From NCBI GenBank assembly GCA_958295945.1, contig OY282386.1, forward strand, positions 2,906,204 to 2,970,203: 64,000 bases of DNA, written 5' to 3'. Both the position numbers and the translations under genes were made by a program. This DNA is from Candidatus Poribacteria bacterium. GTDB taxonomy: Bacteria; Poribacteria; WGA-4E; WGA-3G. Of the stretch, positions 4,887 to 60,222 are shown piece by piece (position 1 is the stretch's first letter; each line of letters starts with the position of its first letter). Under the pieces are notes generated by a model. The model was not told the origin of the DNA. It worked only from the letters and a program-made list of their open reading frames with translations, and made no database searches.

Positions 4887-7766
4887 ATGAAACGTTCTGT
4901 ATTTTTTATAATTGCGATTTGCTTCGGATTACTCGGTAATTTGATAGTTCAAGCACAGCAGACAACGCCTCTGGTAGGAACTGGCATACAACCAGAAATT
5001 AAACGAATGACTGCTAAACTGTCTGGAGAAGTAATCTGGAAAGGTTTTGACCTGTCTCATACTAACGTATCTGTGTATCGTGATGAAAAACTGAAAGACA
5101 TTTACACTAGTGGTGTATCAAAATTAGGCACTGGCACATTTACGCTCCGTGTGGAACCTGGACGGTACTATTTGGTCGCTTATGTGGATGTTGATGGTTC
5201 AGGGAAGTTTGATGAAGGTGATGGCTACGGTGTATTGGGTATAAAGAATTGGAGTGATGAGAATCAGACACATGTTGCCATCGAAGTGGGTACAAACACA
5301 GCAATAAAAGGAATACAGATACCGATAACAGCGAGACTTCAAGGCGTTGAAGAAACGCAGAAACTTGTACCTGCAGCTACATATAAACCGAGTAAATACC
5401 AACAATTCAAAACTGAACTCATTAAGGCAACATCTGGTCTACGCGGCACACTCAACTATTCGGGAGAAAGTGAAATTGCCGAAGAGCACAAGCTTGTTCT
5501 TGCCTATACAGATACATCATGGAAATATCGTGCTGGGATTGCTATTGTTAATGACAAGACAAACGAATGGGAACTCCGTTTGAAGCCTGGGAAATACTAT
5601 CTGATGGCGATTGTTGACAAAAATGGTAGCAACAAACTTGATGATGATGATATTTTCGGTTTTTATGGTCTTAAAGACATATACAAAAAAGGAGCATTTC
5701 CAGAACCTGTATTGGTTAAACCCAGTTCATTTGCTGAAGGTGTTGAAATACATCTAACTGCTACCTATAAAAAGGTAGACCTTACAGAAGCATCAGAAGT
5801 GACAGCGATCATATCAGGACGAGTTTTTCCAATACCACAAACAGCGACAGATGTCCGGATTGAAGTTTATGATAATTCTGCCTTTGTAAAACCCCTCGCG
5901 ACAACGGTTACCAATCCTGATGGCACATATCGTCTTCAACTTCCACCTGGAGAATACTACATCATTGCTAATCACGATGCTGATGGAGACGGTAGATATA
6001 GCAAAGGAGATAGGTTGGGTGGATTAGGAACTGAGTCAATCACTACAGAACAACCTGCTGCAGTCGCATTTGATGCAGGCGAAACAAACGATATCAATAT
6101 CCGATTAAGCGCACAGTATGATGCAGACGGTCAACTTGTTGCTAACAACAATCCGAATATAACACCTTCTGTCGTCGATTTGGGTGCGAATCCATCTCCA
6201 GGTGTTCCACAAGAAGTAAAAATGGGGAGTATTACAGGGAAAGTGACTTCGTTCTTTGCATCGCGAAATGATAAATCCAAGAATGACAACGGTTCATCAG
6301 ATGAGGAGATACCTGTTCCTGATGGTATTCTGAGTCTTTCTACGACACCTGATTTCAGTTCTCCTATGGTGGTTCCACTCATACTTGATGAAGATGGAAA
6401 CTACCTTGTTGATGTTGAATCCGGTAGATACTTTATCCTTGCTGTAGTAGACCAAAATAGGGATGGTGCATCAGGTTTGTCTGATGGTATTGGTGTTTAT
6501 GGGACACATCAACCGGTACGTGGCACACCTGCTCCCGTTTCTGTTTTAGAGGGTAAGACCACGCCACATGTTGATATTGATATTATGGCATCTTATGTGG
6601 ATGAGGCAGGAACGATGTCTGAAATTGAAGATGGTGGACGGTGGAATATTGCGCGTATGCATGGTGAACCGGAGGATATATTCAAATATACACAACAGGG
6701 CAAACAGATTGAAGAGTGGATGTATTGGACAAAAGGTATTGGATTTAAATTTGTAGCGGAAGGTGCTGGCTGGAAATTAAATGATCAGGAAGAGTTTGAA
6801 CCAAACATACAGAATATAAGTAAAGAAACAAAAACACCTGATGGGGTAAAACAAGATGGTGCTAATGAAACAATAGTAAATAAGCCTGATAAAGTAGAAT
6901 TAAGTAAGTTTTCTTTGACTGCAGCATCTGTTTCAATCTTCTACAGTCATGATGGGGTATTATGGCGTATTGCCCCAACAACAGCAGAAGATTTAAAACT
7001 AAACGTTTTTCGTGATATGCCCGTGGATTCACGTGTAGCACCACTTGGAGCAGGTCATCGTCCCTCTGTATCTGTGAATGGAACGCTTGTCTACCATGAT
7101 TTTGATAACAATGTTATTCTTAGAGACATTAAAACTGGAAAAAGCACGGTTTATTTTGATGGACGTGCTCTCGCAGAAGATGTGAAGATTTCACCTGATG
7201 GGGAACATATAGCATTTTCACGGAACGAAGGGAACGATAGAAAGAGGATTGTCATTCAAAATATACGTAATGAGAATATATTCCTTGTCCCTTCAACAGC
7301 GAGAGAAATGACGCATCCTGCTTGGAGCATAGATGGTCAATTCCTTGCATATTCTACTGCTGGTTCAATTGAGAATCCTGCTGCAGATACAAATCGGAAC
7401 ATCTTTCTATTCAATCAAGGAACAAACAGTGTTGAACCAATTGTCATTTCCCCAGCAGATGATGCGGAACCCTCCTGGCATCCTACTGACAGAAATACAC
7501 TTGTGTTTTCCAGAGGCACTGATGGAAGCGTCCGTCAGATATGGGTGGTCAATTATTCGTCTACCGGTGAACGGACAGAACAACAGATAACTGAAATGGG
7601 TGGGAATCGTCCCGTATGGGTGCCACCGAATGGACGTTGGATTGTTTATGAAAACAATGGGCAACTCTGGACAGTGGACTATCAAAATCCAGGAAGTGAA
7701 TTTCCGCTGTTGAGTAATGGAAAAGTTGTGTTTGGGTATCAACCTGTTGCAGTTTCTGTTGAGTGA
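4887..7766 (+). CDS. Secreted 959-aa multidomain protein: signal peptide, four carboxypeptidase-regulatory-like/DUF2141-like beta-sandwich repeats, C-terminal TolB-like PD40 beta-propeller
   Basis: The N-terminus MKRSVFFIIAICFGLLGNLIVQAQQ is a signal peptide. The motif PG(R/K/E)YY(L/I)xA..D.(D/N)G(S/D)G(K/R).D.GD..G..G recurs four times, for example LPPGEYYIIANHDADGDGRYSKGD. The C-terminus carries SPDGEHIAFS..., PAWSIDGQFLAY... and PSWHPTDRNTLVFS... PD40-type blades. Confidence 0.6.
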   Translation: MKRSVFFIIAICFGLLGNLIVQAQQTTPLVGTGIQPEIKRMTAKLSGEVIWKGFDLSHTNVSVYRDEKLKDIYTSGVSKLGTGTFTLRVEPGRYYLVAYVDVDGSGKFDEGDGYGVLGIKNWSDENQTHVAIEVGTNTAIKGIQIPITARLQGVEETQKLVPAATYKPSKYQQFKTELIKATSGLRGTLNYSGESEIAEEHKLVLAYTDTSWKYRAGIAIVNDKTNEWELRLKPGKYYLMAIVDKNGSNKLDDDDIFGFYGLKDIYKKGAFPEPVLVKPSSFAEGVEIHLTATYKKVDLTEASEVTAIISGRVFPIPQTATDVRIEVYDNSAFVKPLATTVTNPDGTYRLQLPPGEYYIIANHDADGDGRYSKGDRLGGLGTESITTEQPAAVAFDAGETNDINIRLSAQYDADGQLVANNNPNITPSVVDLGANPSPGVPQEVKMGSITGKVTSFFASRNDKSKNDNGSSDEEIPVPDGILSLSTTPDFSSPMVVPLILDEDGNYLVDVESGRYFILAVVDQNRDGASGLSDGIGVYGTHQPVRGTPAPVSVLEGKTTPHVDIDIMASYVDEAGTMSEIEDGGRWNIARMHGEPEDIFKYTQQGKQIEEWMYWTKGIGFKFVAEGAGWKLNDQEEFEPNIQNISKETKTPDGVKQDGANETIVNKPDKVELSKFSLTAASVSIFYSHDGVLWRIAPTTAEDLKLNVFRDMPVDSRVAPLGAGHRPSVSVNGTLVYHDFDNNVILRDIKTGKSTVYFDGRALAEDVKISPDGEHIAFSRNEGNDRKRIVIQNIRNENIFLVPSTAREMTHPAWSIDGQFLAYSTAGSIENPAADTNRNIFLFNQGTNSVEPIVISPADDAEPSWHPTDRNTLVFSRGTDGSVRQIWVVNYSSTGERTEQQITEMGGNRPVWVPPNGRWIVYENNGQLWTVDYQNPGSEFPLLSNGKVVFGYQPVAVSVE

Positions 7767-7830
7767 TAAGTGTTTGTTGTATGGGATTGTTTTTACCTCA
7801 GATTCTAACTATTTTACCTATAACTCCTGA

Positions 7831-8301
7831 ATGAAAAGGACATACAATATGAGTAGAAACAGACGTAGAAAAATCATTATAGGACATTTACCTTCAGACA
7901 TCAACCAGTCAAGCAATGACATTTTATCTCAAAAGATATTTGAACAGATAGATGATCTACTCACTAATGAATACGACTGGGATGAAATTGGTTATGAGAA
8001 ACCACGTCCGGAAGATATTGATAAGGCAAAAAATGTTATGTCCAATTTTATTTCATCAATAAATTCGGCAGGATATTCATTGTTTTCATTAGAAACACCG
8101 TCTATTTCCAATGGTGAAAATGGTGGTGCAACTATAGAGTGGCGCGAAAATGGAAGGAGTCTATATTTTGACATCAACCATCAAAGTATAAAGTTTACGA
8201 AGGTGTGGACAGAAGGCAAGAATACAATAGTGAGAACTAAGAAACTTCACAAGAGTGATTATGTGAAAGTATGGGAATGGATATTAAATGAACGATCCTG
8301 A
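7831..8301 (+). CDS. Hypothetical protein (156 aa), first gene of an AT-rich three-ORF islet
   Basis: The ATG is preceded by a purine-rich stretch and the ORF overlaps the next ORF by 14 nt (ATGAACGATCCTGA). No recognisable domain. Confidence 0.45.
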   Translation: MKRTYNMSRNRRRKIIIGHLPSDINQSSNDILSQKIFEQIDDLLTNEYDWDEIGYEKPRPEDIDKAKNVMSNFISSINSAGYSLFSLETPSISNGENGGATIEWRENGRSLYFDINHQSIKFTKVWTEGKNTIVRTKKLHKSDYVKVWEWILNERS

Positions 8302-8515
8302 ACATATAGAAAATGATGAAGAACTCTATAGAAGGTTTGAATCAAATGAGTTTAACACTAAAACTCCTCCTCAATATATTGTAAAAGCATCTGGTGATAT
8401 CAAGTTTCAATCTGCAGCATTTCTCGGTGGAGAAAGACCGTCTGTAGATAGGTCAAAACTTAGGTTTAAGCCAGAAGAAACAAAAAAAATGACTCTGATG
8501 GTATTCTTAGTGTGA
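8288..8515 (+). CDS. Hypothetical protein (75 aa); probably the 5' part of a single gene continued in the -1 frame (8512..8724)
   Basis: ORF ends 23 nt after an A8 run (8482-8489). The -1 frame is open from 8470 onward and continues to 8724. Confidence 0.4.
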   Translation: MNDPEHIENDEELYRRFESNEFNTKTPPQYIVKASGDIKFQSAAFLGGERPSVDRSKLRFKPEETKKMTLMVFLV

Positions 8516-8724
8516 TTACTGAAGATGTTAGGTCTATATCTATACAAGACTTTTCTGTTGATGTAAAATATGAACCGATTAACGATAACAAAGCACATTC
8601 GGAGATTATCATAATTCCAAATCTTGACGGTATATCAAAGAGTAGGAAAAAAGGGGCACTCTCAGATCTCAGAAGAGGTTTAGCAGAAATTGCAGTGTGT
8701 GAAATTAAACCTAATCCGGTATGA
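8512..8724 (+). CDS. Hypothetical protein (70 aa, GTG start as given); probably the 3' part of the 8288 gene reached by a -1 shift at A_AAA_AAA
   Basis: It overlaps the 8288 ORF's stop codon by 4 nt and its frame is open back to 8470. The slippery heptamer lies at 8482-8488. Confidence 0.4.
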   Translation: MITEDVRSISIQDFSVDVKYEPINDNKAHSEIIIIPNLDGISKSRKKGALSDLRRGLAEIAVCEIKPNPV

Positions 8725-8945
8725 TAGTAATTGGACAAACTCAATTGAGAAACAACAAGGTAACATTCCATATACAAATTAGAATGTTACCTTTTTTATT
8801 GTCAAAAAAAAGAAAATACAATAAAATTATAGAAATAAAATGATGAATGTGTCAAAACTACTTATTACAATCGCAGCTTCAGTTCATGATGTCCTTATAC
8901 CAAATTAACGAGATTTTTCCTGTTTTCGATGCCGAGAACACGGGC

Positions 8946-8969
8946 GGGCAGGGGAACCCTGCCCCTACG
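8946..8969 (-). repeat. REP-like element copy 2: stem gggcaggg/ccctgccc, GAA loop, then CTACG
   Basis: Same architecture as copy 1, with compensatory stem substitutions (CGAG->CAGG paired with CTCG->CCTG). It lies 48 nt upstream of the secreted-protein gene at 9017. Confidence 0.55.
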
Positions 8970-9016
8970 ATTTAGGTTAATTTGGTATTATACTTGATAT
9001 AGCGAGGTACAACTAT

Positions 9017-10330
9017 ATGTATAGCTTAAAAAGATTTCTCCAATTAATGTTAATGATGGTTTTCTTTATGCTGCTTCTTACAACAGCATCAGCACAATAT
9101 CTTCTCATCCCAATGGATAATGTGCAGACAAACCACCTGAAAGCCTATGGATTGACCTATTGGGCATTGGAAGTGCCGCGGGAATACAGTTGTTACTGGT
9201 GGCTGAACTATCGTGGTGGATCGTTTGTTACTCCTGATGCTGCGGATGTGAAACTACGAGCAGCACAGATGGGTGTTACTTTTGAAACGTTGAGTGCTGT
9301 TGAATATCAGACAATCAAAGAGAGCCTCATTGAAACAAGTAATATGGATGAGATATTACTTGAAAAAGCACCAAAGATTGCTGTGTATGCACCACCTGAA
9401 GCGTCTCCATTTCAAGATCCTTGGGACGATGCGGTGAAAATTGCTCTGGATTACGCTGAGATTTCTTATGACCAAATTTGGGACAATGAGGTGCAACGAG
9501 GTGCTCTACACACGGAAGGTTACGATTGGTTACATCTGCATCACGAAGATTTTACTGGACAGCACGGCAAATTTCACGGTTCATTTTCACACCAAGTATG
9601 GTATCAACAACGGATGGCACTATTTGAGAAAACTGCAAAAGAATCAGGTTTTAAAAGCGTATCACGCCATAAAGGGCAAACTGCACTGGACATTGCAGAT
9701 TATGTAGCAAAAGGTGGATTTATATTTGCCATGTGTTCTGCCCCTGAAACGCTGGATATTGCCTTAGCATCAAAGGGTGGTACGCTTGATATTGTTGATC
9801 CTGTGTTAGATGCTACACCGCTTGCTCAGGATTTTCAAAAGAAATTGGACTTTGAACACACATTTGCATTTGAGAATTTTACACTCTATCCAAACCCGAA
9901 CAAATATGAATTTTCTGATATTGATAATCCGAATCCTGATATGAGTCCACACACGGGGGTTGAGGATTTCAAACTCTTTGAATTTTCTGCGAAACATGAT
10001 CCGATACCAACAATGTTGACACAAAACCACGTCTCAGAAGTGCCGGGTTTCCTTGGACAAACAACATCATTTAATAAGAACACGATAAACCGATCAGTCA
10101 CGATTTTAGCCAATATTGAAGGCACAAACTATGTCAAATATGTTCATGGCACATTGGGAAAGGGTACATTTACATTTCTCGGTGGACATGACCCAGAGGA
10201 TTACCGCCATCTTGTCGGTGAAGGAAAGATACCAACCAATCTTGACCTGCATAAGCATTCACCCGGTTATCGGTTGATATTAAACAATATCCTGTTCCCT
10301 GCCGCTCGTAAAAAACCACAGAAAACCTAA
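9017..10330 (+). CDS. Secreted hypothetical protein (437 aa), possibly with a class-I glutamine amidotransferase/DJ-1-like fold
   Basis: The N-terminus has a signal-peptide-like hydrophobic stretch (MMVFFMLLLTTASAQ). An internal GGFIFAMCSAPETLD carries a candidate nucleophile cysteine. Assignment is weak. Confidence 0.4.
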   Translation: MYSLKRFLQLMLMMVFFMLLLTTASAQYLLIPMDNVQTNHLKAYGLTYWALEVPREYSCYWWLNYRGGSFVTPDAADVKLRAAQMGVTFETLSAVEYQTIKESLIETSNMDEILLEKAPKIAVYAPPEASPFQDPWDDAVKIALDYAEISYDQIWDNEVQRGALHTEGYDWLHLHHEDFTGQHGKFHGSFSHQVWYQQRMALFEKTAKESGFKSVSRHKGQTALDIADYVAKGGFIFAMCSAPETLDIALASKGGTLDIVDPVLDATPLAQDFQKKLDFEHTFAFENFTLYPNPNKYEFSDIDNPNPDMSPHTGVEDFKLFEFSAKHDPIPTMLTQNHVSEVPGFLGQTTSFNKNTINRSVTILANIEGTNYVKYVHGTLGKGTFTFLGGHDPEDYRHLVGEGKIPTNLDLHKHSPGYRLILNNILFPAARKKPQKT

Positions 10331-23118: not shown

Positions 23119-23130
23119 GGGGGGGGGGGG
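23119..23130. repeat. Homopolymeric G12 tract in an AT-rich non-coding stretch
   Basis: ttttcgctgggggggggggcacgg read directly. It lies ~200 bp upstream (minus-strand sense) of the 546-aa gene start. Confidence 0.8.
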
Positions 23131-57521: not shown

Positions 57522-58526
57522 TTAATCCACCGGCATTGCACGCTTTGGAATCTCTACTTCTTGTTCATCCCAAAACTTAAATGCCCCTTGATGTAATGGA
57601 ATAACAAATGCTTTTGATGCGTTTTCTATAGTCATTACTGAAGCAGCTTGATTTGATTGAAGCATTCTATTTTTGCCTTCTGATGAATAAACATGTTTCA
57701 GTAGAGCATAAATGGTCTCTTCTGGAATTGCTTTATTCGCAATCAGAACTGTTGGCATAGTAATTGTCCTCACGGGTTCAACTTTTCCTTCATACATACC
57801 TTCTGGCAATTTGGAAGGGAAATAGAACGGATATTTGTCATAAAAACCGTGCTTCTTTGCAGGGGTATCAAGGTCTATCATGCGAATAGATTTAATTGCT
57901 GTTAATTCAATTATTGCACGATTTGGAACACTGACTAACCATAAAAAACCTTGAACCTGACCATCTTGCAACGCTTGAGCACCTTTAGTACCACCACTAT
58001 AACTCGGTGTGAATTCTTCCCAAATTCCGGCTGCCTTTGCAAGCCGTTCCATAGTTTTTGCAGTACCAGAACCAGGAGCACCACAAGCAACCTTTGTCCC
58101 TACAATATCATCAAATGTATGAACATTGCTCTTTTCAAGTGTTGAAAATTGTCCATAAGCATAATATAAAAGCGTAACCATGCGGATATTATTTCTTGGT
58201 CCAACTTCTGCAAATACTTCTTCACCATTATAACCCAGCGAACTTTCAGATGCAAATACTACCCCGAGCGCATTCTCTTCCTCATTAACACGGCGTGTGT
58301 TTTCAACAGAACCTGCGGATGCTACAACATAGAGTTTTACATCAGGCACATTGTGCTCGACAATCTGTTTAATATCACCTGCAAACAGAGAAAAACTTCC
58401 ACCAATCACGCCACCATATATAGTATACCATTCCTTATCCTGTTTATCACCGCATCCTGAAAAAAAAGTAAGTAGTAATAAAATAGAACTGACACATAAT
58501 TGGAGATAATTCTGTTTATTGCCCAT
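57522..58526 (-). CDS. TAXI-family TRAP-transporter solute-binding lipoprotein-like protein
   Basis: Lipobox (LLTFFSGCG). YGGVIGGSFSLFAGDIKQIV resembles the TAXI GG..GG.Y..G motif; 334 aa. No DctQM permease adjacent. Confidence 0.5.
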   Translation of the reverse strand: MGNKQNYLQLCVSSILLLLTFFSGCGDKQDKEWYTIYGGVIGGSFSLFAGDIKQIVEHNVPDVKLYVVASAGSVENTRRVNEEENALGVVFASESSLGYNGEEVFAEVGPRNNIRMVTLLYYAYGQFSTLEKSNVHTFDDIVGTKVACGAPGSGTAKTMERLAKAAGIWEEFTPSYSGGTKGAQALQDGQVQGFLWLVSVPNRAIIELTAIKSIRMIDLDTPAKKHGFYDKYPFYFPSKLPEGMYEGKVEPVRTITMPTVLIANKAIPEETIYALLKHVYSSEGKNRMLQSNQAASVMTIENASKAFVIPLHQGAFKFWDEQEVEIPKRAMPVD

Positions 58527-58950
58527 TTGAATTCCTTAAATATTAGGTTTTGGATAACCGATAATATCATAACTTTGCACAATTTACAAGAGAATTGAGA
58601 CCTATGGGTATGTCAGTTTTTTTGCATGCATATTGTATCTGTCTTGTTGAAGGAGTGAAGTGCCATCGATTTTTTAGACCATAATTTCGTAAAGTTAAGA
58701 CAAGTTTTTTTGTTCAAATTCAATAGGAGTTAAATAACCTAATGCCGAATGAGGTCGTTTCTGGTTGGACACTTGTTCAATAAAATGTCCAATGGTAGAC
58801 GAGATCTCCGAACCTCGCAGATGCTGAATGTTCAAGTAATTTCAAAATCTACTATAACTTTACATACAAACACAATTTCTCTTGATAAATCTTTCTAATA
58901 TTGATAAACTAACAATATAAATGTGTTTAAATGACAAGGAGGACGTAAAG

Positions 58951-60222
58951 ATGAATAGATCTTACGCATTCTTATGGATTATTACCATTAGCATATTCAT
59001 GTGTGTTGGATTTACTTCTATATGTGAGGCAACTACTGAAGAGGAACCACCACCACCTCAAAAGGAAACTCATCCATCTGAAAAACGTGTTGTAGTTTTA
59101 CATTTTAAAGATAGCAGTAATTTTGATGATCCAGTCGGTTGTGGTTGTATACCAAACTTCGTCGGTGCTGTTTTTAGCACAAAAAAAATGTGGGATTTGG
59201 AAGCAGGTTTCGCAACAATTCTTGCTCGAAGACTCGCAGAAACATCTGTCTATCAACCTGTTTCACGAGATGAACTACTGGATGCTATGGCACAGATGAC
59301 CTTATCAAGACGTAACTTAATGAAAATTGATAAAGACCAACGTGCAGAACTTGCGAAACTACTCAATGCCGATGTTATAATTGTTGGTGAAATCAAAAAA
59401 TTTGGACAGACAAGAATGAAGGCAAACGCTTCAAGGTCCTTGACAGAAAGTGGAAGAGAAACACAATCAGTACCCATATCCACAAGTTATATGACCAGAT
59501 TTGCAGCCATGGGGCATAGAAATCGAGCTTTTGTAAAACTTAACATGAAATTTTACGAAGCATCCGGAAATGAAATCGCTACTGTGCCAATTGACGTATC
59601 TCATAGAGATAGTCTCGCGGGGACAAATATCGCTGGATTGAAAGCTTCTGTTACTGAATCCGGCTCCGAATTTCAATTTGGAAAGACTAAGGAAAAATTT
59701 GGAAACCGCACTCGACCAATCACAAAAACCACACAACTAAATAAAATTAAATTTGCTTCACCTGAGTATGATAGAACTCTTTTTGGTATAGCAACAAATG
59801 ATGCCCTTATCAAGACCGTCATCGAACTTAGAGATAGTTTTGGTCCAAACTTCATAACGCCATGGGAAACACCTGAGAATAAAGAGGAGCAAAAGAAGCA
59901 AGTTGACGAAGCAATGGCTAAACGTCCAATCAAAATTACTTATGTAGAAACCGATGATCAAAATGTGATTTACATTAATGCAGGTTCCGCAAAAGGAATA
60001 GCAATCGATCAGCAGTTTGCAGTATATACTGATGGTCCACCAATTCGTGATGTTGATACAGGTGAAATCCTTGATTATACAAAGAAGAAAATTGCAACTG
60101 TCGCTGTTACGGAAATCCTGAACGAGAAACTCTCTGTCGTAAAAATAGTTGAAAAAACAGGCGATATCAAAAGAGGTGACTTACTAAAATCACTTACTTC
60201 AGATGATCCGAAGGAACAATAA
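58951..60222 (+). CDS. Secreted CsgG/LpoB-like (curli-assembly/TolB-N-like fold) protein; start taken at the ATG 8 nt after AAGGAGG
   Basis: Signal peptide. VVVLHFKDSSNF...ATILARRLAETSVYQPVSRDELLDAMAQ...LLNADVIIVGEIKKFG matches the CsgG/LpoB V.VLPF.N...L...L....F.VVER..L......ADYLL.G.I..F pattern. The track ORF begins at 58921, but the RBS supports 58951. Confidence 0.45.
   Translation: MNRSYAFLWIITISIFMCVGFTSICEATTEEEPPPPQKETHPSEKRVVVLHFKDSSNFDDPVGCGCIPNFVGAVFSTKKMWDLEAGFATILARRLAETSVYQPVSRDELLDAMAQMTLSRRNLMKIDKDQRAELAKLLNADVIIVGEIKKFGQTRMKANASRSLTESGRETQSVPISTSYMTRFAAMGHRNRAFVKLNMKFYEASGNEIATVPIDVSHRDSLAGTNIAGLKASVTESGSEFQFGKTKEKFGNRTRPITKTTQLNKIKFASPEYDRTLFGIATNDALIKTVIELRDSFGPNFITPWETPENKEEQKKQVDEAMAKRPIKITYVETDDQNVIYINAGSAKGIAIDQQFAVYTDGPPIRDVDTGEILDYTKKKIATVAVTEILNEKLSVVKIVEKTGDIKRGDLLKSLTSDDPKEQ

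Follow-up and report, generated by a model that had tools for sequence, protein, structure and literature searches.

What is encoded by three short, overlapping open reading frames (ORFs) that lie in an AT-rich islet of a Candidatus Poribacteria genome, between two genes for secreted proteins? The islet occupies positions 7800-8900 of the 64,000-nt stretch of contig OY282386.1 analysed here (the window, whose numbering is used throughout). The explanation that we favour, with moderate confidence, is a decaying two-gene toxin-antitoxin-like cassette of the type II or abortive-infection kind, from an uncharacterised family. Comparison of related sequences makes the second gene, B, the likely toxin and the first gene, A, its likely neutraliser. 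A preliminary description of this DNA had proposed a horizontally acquired toxin-antitoxin, abortive-infection or other defence cassette. Base composition, gene pairing, mobile contexts and lowered synonymous divergence (dS) speak for that proposal, with the qualification that the putative toxin gene is broken here.

Two genes read as three ORFs

The three ORFs are as first described, including their overlaps of 14 nt and 4 nt:

7831-8301, + strand: ORF1, 156 aa
8288-8515, + strand: ORF2, 75 aa
8512-8724, + strand: ORF3, 70 aa

ORF2 and ORF3 are almost certainly the halves of one gene. In tblastn searches, B maps in two segments that differ by one frame: residues 1-67 at 8288-8488 and residues 66-145 at 8482-8721. 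The frame is lost in a run of eight A. Restoring one A in this run gives a 145-aa protein with full-length homologues, which bears out the fused product of ~144 aa that the preliminary description had envisaged. The full-length homologues of the repaired protein have 142-147 aa and identities of up to about 75%; over partial-length matches, identity reaches at most 85%. A reading as three separate genes was rejected, ORF2 and ORF3 being one gene. The features of the islet are then the following:

7831..8301, + strand: gene A, putative antitoxin or immunity protein, 156 aa from the ATG at 7831
8288..8724, + strand: gene B, putative toxin with a predicted ADP-ribosyltransferase-like fold, 145 aa with the frame restored; here a pseudogene that appears as two ORFs
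8482..8489, + strand: A8 run, point at which the frame of B is lost; an intact gene would need A9 (ACA AAA AAA AAT GAC)
8757..8806, + strand: terminator-like hairpin after B, with a 12-bp stem (GGTAACATTC.. / ..GAATGTTACC) and a 13-nt loop, followed by T6

The start of A is probably the ATG at 7849 (150 aa), because an AAGGA Shine-Dalgarno-like motif lies 8 nt upstream of it and the same start is called in the closest relative, P0028. The ATG of B sits 14 nt inside the end of A. In relatives (comparison loci carry L numbers), the A run is interrupted at the corresponding place, reading ACAAAAAGAAAT in the closest one, L012, and AAGAAAAAT in L014, L015 and L017. The A8 homopolymer is therefore lineage-specific and not a conserved slippery site. 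The alignment suggests that it arose by a G-to-A change followed by the loss of one A. Between the window and L012, the ratio of non-synonymous to synonymous divergence (dN/dS) of B is 0.28, from 18 non-synonymous and 16 synonymous differences, and equals that found among intact copies. Both the frameshift in the window and a start-codon lesion in L012 (see below) are thus recent.

The hairpin downstream of B has a fold z of -4.4 and is conserved in L012 and L018. It was recognised by alignment and folding; a consensus terminator scan did not report it, presumably since its 13-nt loop exceeds the 3-8-nt limit of the scanner.

The AT-richness of the islet is equally clear. Its GC content is 0.330, versus a mean of 0.402 for the window (standard deviation 0.023, 1.1-kb windows), which places it in the lowest 0.1% of 1.1-kb windows; the window-wide minimum lies inside it. 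The genes flanking the islet have GC contents of 0.41-0.44. Most of the contrast resides at codon positions 1 and 2; GC at third positions (GC3) is 0.30 in A and B together versus 0.29-0.35 in the flanks. The comparison of composition with the flanks therefore stands for base composition and fails for third-position codon usage. Recent foreign DNA with a foreign codon bias was rejected because GC3 equals that of the host flanks, even though the dS values show that Poribacteria exchange the cassette. That AT-rich DNA had given rise to the ORFs by chance was also rejected, since conserved homologues number in the hundreds and are under purifying selection.

A and B form a conserved pair

Scans of Pfam, NCBIfam and PHROGs returned nothing for A and nothing for B. 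The view that the ORFs carry no recognisable domain holds for these three databases; the sole domain hit is that of ORF1, which weakly matches part of the PADLOC candidate model PDC-M32A (E 3.8e-5). When 1.84 billion cluster representatives were searched with a profile, a large B family emerged; clustered at 50% identity, it comprises 701 clusters with E<=1e-3 and 493 clusters with E<=1e-10. Almost every member is a free-standing protein of 140-165 aa, and the relatives have either no name or that of “hypothetical protein”. In Pfam, first 28 and later 138 members of the family gave chance hits only, with none of the 138 reaching E<=0.01. No match was obtained with tblastn of a B homologue against plasmids, and a scan of viral contigs gave no confirmed relative. 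The reference-genome relatives of A all belong to Candidatus Poribacteria, as metagenome-assembled genomes of sponge symbionts.

Gene neighbourhoods show that the two families travel together. In all 12 other distinct contexts of B that we examined, a gene with the A domain lies directly upstream, and its stop codon overlaps or abuts the start of B. The contexts compared were L001, L012, L014, L015, L017, L006, L009 (two tandem pairs), L010, L021, L022, L023, L025 and L027, and the A domain was confirmed in all middle genes by a local hidden Markov model search and jackhmmer. Homologues scattered singly in core-genome contexts, which would have spoken against a module, were not what we found: the pair recurs in each of these contexts and is fused in one clade. 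This diverged clade (P0076, P0077, P0196 and P0197) carries A and B as a single polypeptide of 322-404 aa with the conserved junction LW[EK]WL[IT]MNENQ, which argues for direct physical cooperation of A and B. In P0077, moreover, the N-terminal part of A is duplicated within the protein. We conclude with high confidence that A and B are a conserved functional pair. The small, adjacent, co-directional genes, overlapping or coupled and inherited together, have the layout of type II toxin-antitoxin systems.

Outside Poribacteria, the module usually has three genes, the first encoding a protein of the TIGR04255 family (~260-307 aa, function unknown). Sizes below are given in gene order:

L006: 263 + 310 + 156 aa; first gene TIGR04255 (E 4.6e-13)
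L010: 230 + 186 + 147 aa; transposases adjoining
L021, 194-2061: 307 + 165 + 146 aa; Peduoviridae (P2-like) Ralstonia phage YO139_2; first gene TIGR04255 (E 7.9e-44)
L022: 274 + 187 + 161 aa; Xre-type gene adjoining; first gene related to TIGR04255
L023: 261 + 250 + 151 aa; rve transposase adjoining; first gene related to TIGR04255
L025/L026: 268 + 121 + 154 aa; immediately after a phage integrase
L027: 267 + 204 + 155 aa; integrase-AlpA island; first gene related to TIGR04255
L009, 2607-6444: three tandem Uma2-family (PF05685) genes, then two tandem diverged A-B pairs

Selfish or defence modules thus form a small array in L009. In L010, L015, L001 and L025, the upstream genes (215-268 aa) are not recognisably TIGR04255, and a literature search on TIGR04255 found no papers. 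The window holds the two-gene form: A starts 65 nt after the stop codon of a 959-aa gene, too close for a third gene to fit in between. The idea of an undescribed two-gene system is thus right as to the number of genes at this locus. It needs amending in that three genes are usual outside Poribacteria and that A and one B homologue weakly match PDC-M32.

In 14 of 14 loci, the GC content of the module is 5-10 points below that of its surroundings. The mobile or defence contexts comprise integrases with or without AlpA, transposases, the P2-like Ralstonia phage, and a slot shared with methyltransferase-HNH genes or VapBC.

Turnover and probable toxin-first decay at one chromosomal slot

The cassette occupies the same slot in eight Poribacteria genomes. 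On one side is a gene for a secreted Tricorn/PD40-type protein of 957-959 aa, and on the other a conserved 437-aa secreted protein followed by glutamine-dependent NAD synthetase. The state of the slot differs between genomes:

Window: A and frameshifted B
L012/L005 (closest; A 93% and B 88% identical): A and a B whose start ATG is changed to ACG, with no alternative start
L014: split A, and B truncated at residue 98
L013: A with an altered C-terminus, methyltransferase-HNH gene (459 aa) and 339-aa gene; B gone
L016 and L018: methyltransferase-HNH gene and A; B deleted
L017: methyltransferase-HNH gene, intact A and intact B
L015: TnpB fragment, 215-aa gene, long A and intact B
L001: 220-aa gene, A, B and a VapB/PIN pair

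At least four different lesions account for the inactivation or loss of B, and A is intact everywhere except in L014. The dN/dS of A at the Poribacteria site is 0.2-0.35, including where A is orphaned, which indicates purifying selection. Toxin-first decay with retention of the antitoxin is an expected pattern of toxin-antitoxin evolution. The loss of B with retention of A is thus what would be expected if B were a toxin and A its antitoxin, an argument from the general evolution of such systems.

Between the window and L012, dS is 0.18-0.19 for A and B and 0.36-0.45 for the flanking genes. Against L017 and L001, the values are ~0.7-0.9 for A and B and 1.9-2.9 (saturated) for the flanking genes. 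The dS of the cassette is therefore two- to three-fold below that of the flanking core genes, so that the cassette is younger than the split of its hosts and has been exchanged among Poribacteria lineages at this slot.

Other small modules are found there as well. In L001, A-B is followed directly, at 8548-9164, by genes for a VapB-like protein (80 aa) and a PIN-domain protein (125 aa); the slot can thus stack two addiction modules. A methyltransferase fused to a C-terminal HNH-like motif (459-461 aa) is present in L013 (4251-5630), L016 (4615-6000), L017 (4590-5969) and L018 (4610-5995). In L013, it is followed at 5634-6653 by a 339-aa partner with a GC content of 0.285. These genes look like a restriction-modification-type cassette that alternates with A-B or stands beside it. 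Dense defence repertoires have already been described for uncultured sponge symbionts (PMC5649159).

Predicted folds of B and A

The AlphaFold2 model of B has a predicted local distance difference test score (pLDDT) of 92.5 and a predicted template modelling score (pTM) of 0.87. In this model, B appears to have an ADP-ribosyltransferase (ART)-like fold. Search for structural similarities in the PDB using Foldseek revealed nothing significant, with lipocalins at a template modelling (TM) score of 0.2, and the fold call accordingly does not derive from one strong match. Against PDB sequences, a profile search with B gave no relative, its one chance match being to an EAL domain (E 1.2).

Three residues, F45, H104 and L132, are invariant across 138 diverse members of the B family. 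A further set is conserved in at least 90% of them: E11, L13, R15, A44, S52, V53, R55, P62, R82, P97, N101, A103, P111 and P142. Among the predicted strands, the first carries R15, the fourth S52 and R55, and the seventh has H104 at its start. ART catalytic triads are R-S-E or H-Y-E (H-H-h in Tpt1) and lie on strands beta1, beta2 and beta5. We take the strands of R15, S52/R55 and H104 in the model to be the ART beta1, beta2 and beta5, at the triad positions of R-S-E ARTs, an assignment that follows the order of secondary structure elements and not a superposition. An atypical triad has a precedent in TreTu, for which R-H-h was proposed (PMC9825190). The chances that B uses ART-type NAD+ chemistry are about even.

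The model of A has a pLDDT of 78.6. Residues 1-26 are disordered and include a basic stretch, RNRRRK. The remainder is laid out as two helices, a five-stranded antiparallel sheet and a C-terminal helix.

Relation to known systems

One of the closest parallels is TreTu-TriTu, a Salmonella Rhs1 ART toxin with a lid-type immunity protein (PDB 7ZHL/7ZHM; PMC9825190). TriTu is built of a flat five-stranded sheet with two flanking helices and lids the NAD+ site (PMC9825190). In the models, A and B both weakly resemble the respective members of this pair, TriTu and TreTu, though there is no detectable sequence similarity. B is free-standing, its protector gene comes first and it has no type VI secretion system (T6SS) context, whereas TreTu is the C-terminus of an Rhs protein. 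The conserved residues also differ: E11, R15, S52, R55 and H104 in B versus R6, E12, S25, H31, F41 and W68 in TreTu.

Other ART-fold toxins are those of RES-Xre/MbcTA, DarTG and ParST. No member of the B family matches Pfam RES, DarT or another Pfam family. A is neither an Xre/helix-turn-helix (HTH) protein nor a macrodomain, and B has a His in place of the catalytic Glu. Tse2-Tsi2 of the Pseudomonas T6SS also includes an ART-like fold; however, Tse2 is secreted and is not similar to B in sequence, and Tsi2 differs from A in being all-helical.

PDC-M32 is the one catalogued candidate that the module approaches. The A domain matches the C-terminal ~100 positions of PDC-M32A (E 6e-6 to 1e-4), and the Ralstonia-phage homologue of B weakly matches PDC-M32B (E 5.9e-4). 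A of the window, with 150 aa, matches only positions 255-358 of the 375 positions of PDC-M32A, in the hit already mentioned, and B of the window has no match to PDC-M32B. These profile matches point to a remote relation to PDC-M32, not to membership. PDC-M32 has been reported in prophages (PMC12429752); the literature names it only as a hypothetical computational candidate and gives no published mechanism.

For the three-gene form, the tripartite toxin-antitoxin-chaperone defence system CmdTAC, with its mRNA ADP-ribosyltransferase (PMC11618068), offers an analogy to TIGR04255 + A + B. By this analogy, the module would comprise an ART toxin, a neutraliser and a third protein as possible sensor or chaperone. 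It differs from CmdTAC in that it matches no PADLOC models other than PDC-M32, that the third gene is absent from the window and that TIGR04255, as far as tested, is not a SecB-like chaperone.

Proposed mechanism and its weak points

In the mechanism that we propose, A and B would be co-transcribed and translationally coupled, and the hairpin with T6 at 8757-8806 would end the unit. A, a small alpha/beta protein, would bind B and mask its active cleft in the manner of the TriTu lid. Free B would arrest growth by an NAD+-dependent reaction, either ADP-ribosylating a macromolecule or degrading NAD+. B would be freed by loss of A, and in the three-gene form perhaps when the TIGR04255 protein senses phage. 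In the genome of the window, B would not be made and A alone would remain, as an orphan antitoxin; this copy of the module is probably non-functional. The slot between the two conserved secreted-protein genes is a site at which related genomes swap small defence or addiction modules.

Several points weigh against this account. We infer the toxicity of B, its neutralisation by A and the use of NAD+. No ART family came out of the profile searches (PDB sequences, Pfam, NCBIfam, PHROGs and most PADLOC models). The position of the canonical catalytic Glu, 106, varies (E, Q, K, L or T), and the invariant residue on that strand is His104. The resulting R-S-H pattern fails both the R-S-E and the H-Y-E signature, and the chemistry of B may therefore be different. 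Many type II antitoxins carry an autoregulatory DNA-binding domain, a common but not universal trait; A has no Pfam or NCBIfam DNA-binding domain (HTH, ribbon-helix-helix, AbrB or similar) for autoregulation. The retention of A without B could reflect a function of A itself. Values of dS above about 1.5, as in the more distant flanking genes, are saturated and semi-quantitative only. Finally, the frameshift in B could be a homopolymer read error, which would leave the module intact.

This last point leads to the alternative that survives best, although we consider it unlikely: the module is intact and active, the missing A is a sequencing or assembly error and B is made as a normal protein of 145 aa. 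The lesion is indeed a single-base length change inside a homopolymer, the commonest type of error in long-read assemblies, and the rest of the B frame is open and well conserved, with the low dN/dS versus L012 given above. However, three other long homopolymer runs, each within a single long ORF, leave that ORF unbroken, so the assembly is not generally ridden with indels. Moreover, five related genomes have, independently of one another, a damaged B or none at this site, and loss of B is therefore the norm in this lineage.

We regard it as improbable that B is a non-toxic enzyme, such as a Tpt1-like RNA 2'-phosphotransferase or an NAD+/nucleotide housekeeping enzyme, with A as a regulatory or chaperone subunit. 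Tpt1 aligns with B over the NAD+ lobe only (86 residues). The module is patchy, mobile (prophage, integrase islands) and repeatedly lost, unlike a housekeeping gene, and the loss is asymmetric, B going while A stays.

The structural analogues themselves raise the question of a secreted effector with its immunity protein, as in polymorphic toxins or contact-dependent competition. The nearest ones include the T6SS/Rhs pairs Tse2-Tsi2, TreTu-TriTu and TreX-TriX, and AvrPphF ORF2-ORF1, an effector-chaperone pair of a type III secretion system. B, however, lacks an N-terminal trafficking, Rhs, PAAR or signal domain, in a family of almost exclusively free-standing small proteins, and none of the loci has genes of a secretion system close by. 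That the protector gene comes before the toxin gene and overlaps it corresponds to the order of toxin-antitoxin systems and not to that of effector followed by immunity gene, and the A-B fusions would be self-inhibited effectors. An effector-immunity pair is, in our judgement, quite improbable.

Highly improbable is a programmed frameshift, either -1 ribosomal on A_AAA_AAA or by transcriptional slippage on A8, giving a low, regulated level of full-length toxin: the zero-frame A AAA AAA is a classic slippery heptamer and runs of 8-9 A cause RNA polymerase slippage, yet the run lacks conservation, relatives with an intact B all have it interrupted and need no frameshift, and no obvious downstream stimulatory structure was noticed, no dedicated search having been made. 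A conserved programmed frameshift was rejected, the A run being lineage-specific; leaky slippage on A8 may occur by chance.

Returning to the toxin-antitoxin-like cassette, a bolder version of it can be put forward tentatively. A-B would be a new, widespread anti-phage abortive-infection system with an R-S-H ART-fold effector, a TriTu-like lid inhibitor acting in trans or fused in cis, a TIGR04255 phage sensor and a dedicated hot spot in Poribacteria. If the toxin-antitoxin reading is correct, it gives an entry to a large unnamed family, with at least 701 clusters at 50% identity and no Pfam family. ART-based toxin-antitoxin and defence systems would gain a new toxin clade and a new antitoxin fold, and both TIGR04255, an orphan family, and the PADLOC candidate PDC-M32 would receive a first functional context. 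The Poribacteria slot, whose state differs among eight genomes, is a natural experiment in cassette turnover and toxin-first decay among uncultured sponge symbionts. It is the family that is of value, more than the locus of the window.

A repeat element and other features around the islet

The preliminary description had placed a REP-like hairpin at 8946. A GC-rich hairpin, GGGCAGGGGAACCCTGCCCC, is present there (8946-8965), as the only copy in the window. It forms the core of a longer element, for which the term REP-like is roughly right and a dispersed repeat resembling a miniature inverted-repeat transposable element (MITE) fits better:

8897..8988, no strand assigned: MITE-like palindromic repeat, 92 nt, with 13-nt perfect terminal inverted repeats at 8897-8909 (ATACCAAATTAAC) and 8976-8988 (GTTAATTTGGTAT)

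The element contains two internal hairpins (RNA fold z of -5.5) and is absent from the same site in the closest relative, L012. A 22-nt end of it, AAATCYCGTTAATTTGGTATAA, recurs within the variable slot of L001 and L018. The same 22-mer is found in 5 contigs of the metagenome LXNJ01, mostly ~100 nt from contig ends, as is typical of a dispersed repeat. One of these copies, in L028, is built alike, with inverted repeats on both sides of a hairpin. Rfam gave no match to the element or to other intergenic structures. Its ends (AATTAAC...GTTAATT) are loosely like the attC consensus RYYYAAC/GTTRRRY, with one mismatch each, around an interior of two hairpins; an integron integrase was looked for within the loci shown only. 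The element is best seen as inserted beside the cassette and is probably not a functional part of A-B.

A second family of short palindromic repeats (GTTCCGTAGGGACGATATGTTTAT and its inverse; ACGGGACTAAAGAG) occurs in the intergenic DNA of the slot in several Poribacteria genomes, at 7200-7400 in L001, ~6500-6900 in L016 and 4440-4480 in L018.

Between the terminator-like hairpin and the repeat, the minus strand carries a promoter-like site at 8826-8855 that matches the sigma-70 consensus at 12 of 12 positions (TTGACA, 18 nt, TATAAT). It points leftward, at the hairpin and the 3' end of B. It could be the promoter of a short antisense RNA or a chance occurrence in AT-rich DNA (8 promoter-like sites versus 6.4 expected).

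Elsewhere in the window, only one other stretch, 58100-59400, has a GC content below 0.35. It looks ordinary, with the 5' end of a 334-aa solute-binding-type gene (minus strand) and the first part of a 433-aa lipoprotein-like gene on either side of an intergenic region. This low-GC patch at 58.1-59.4 kb was rejected as a second islet because of its ordinary gene content. A G12 homopolymer at 23119-23130, outside all stop-free stretches of at least 100 codons, could be a phase-variation tract or an assembly artefact.

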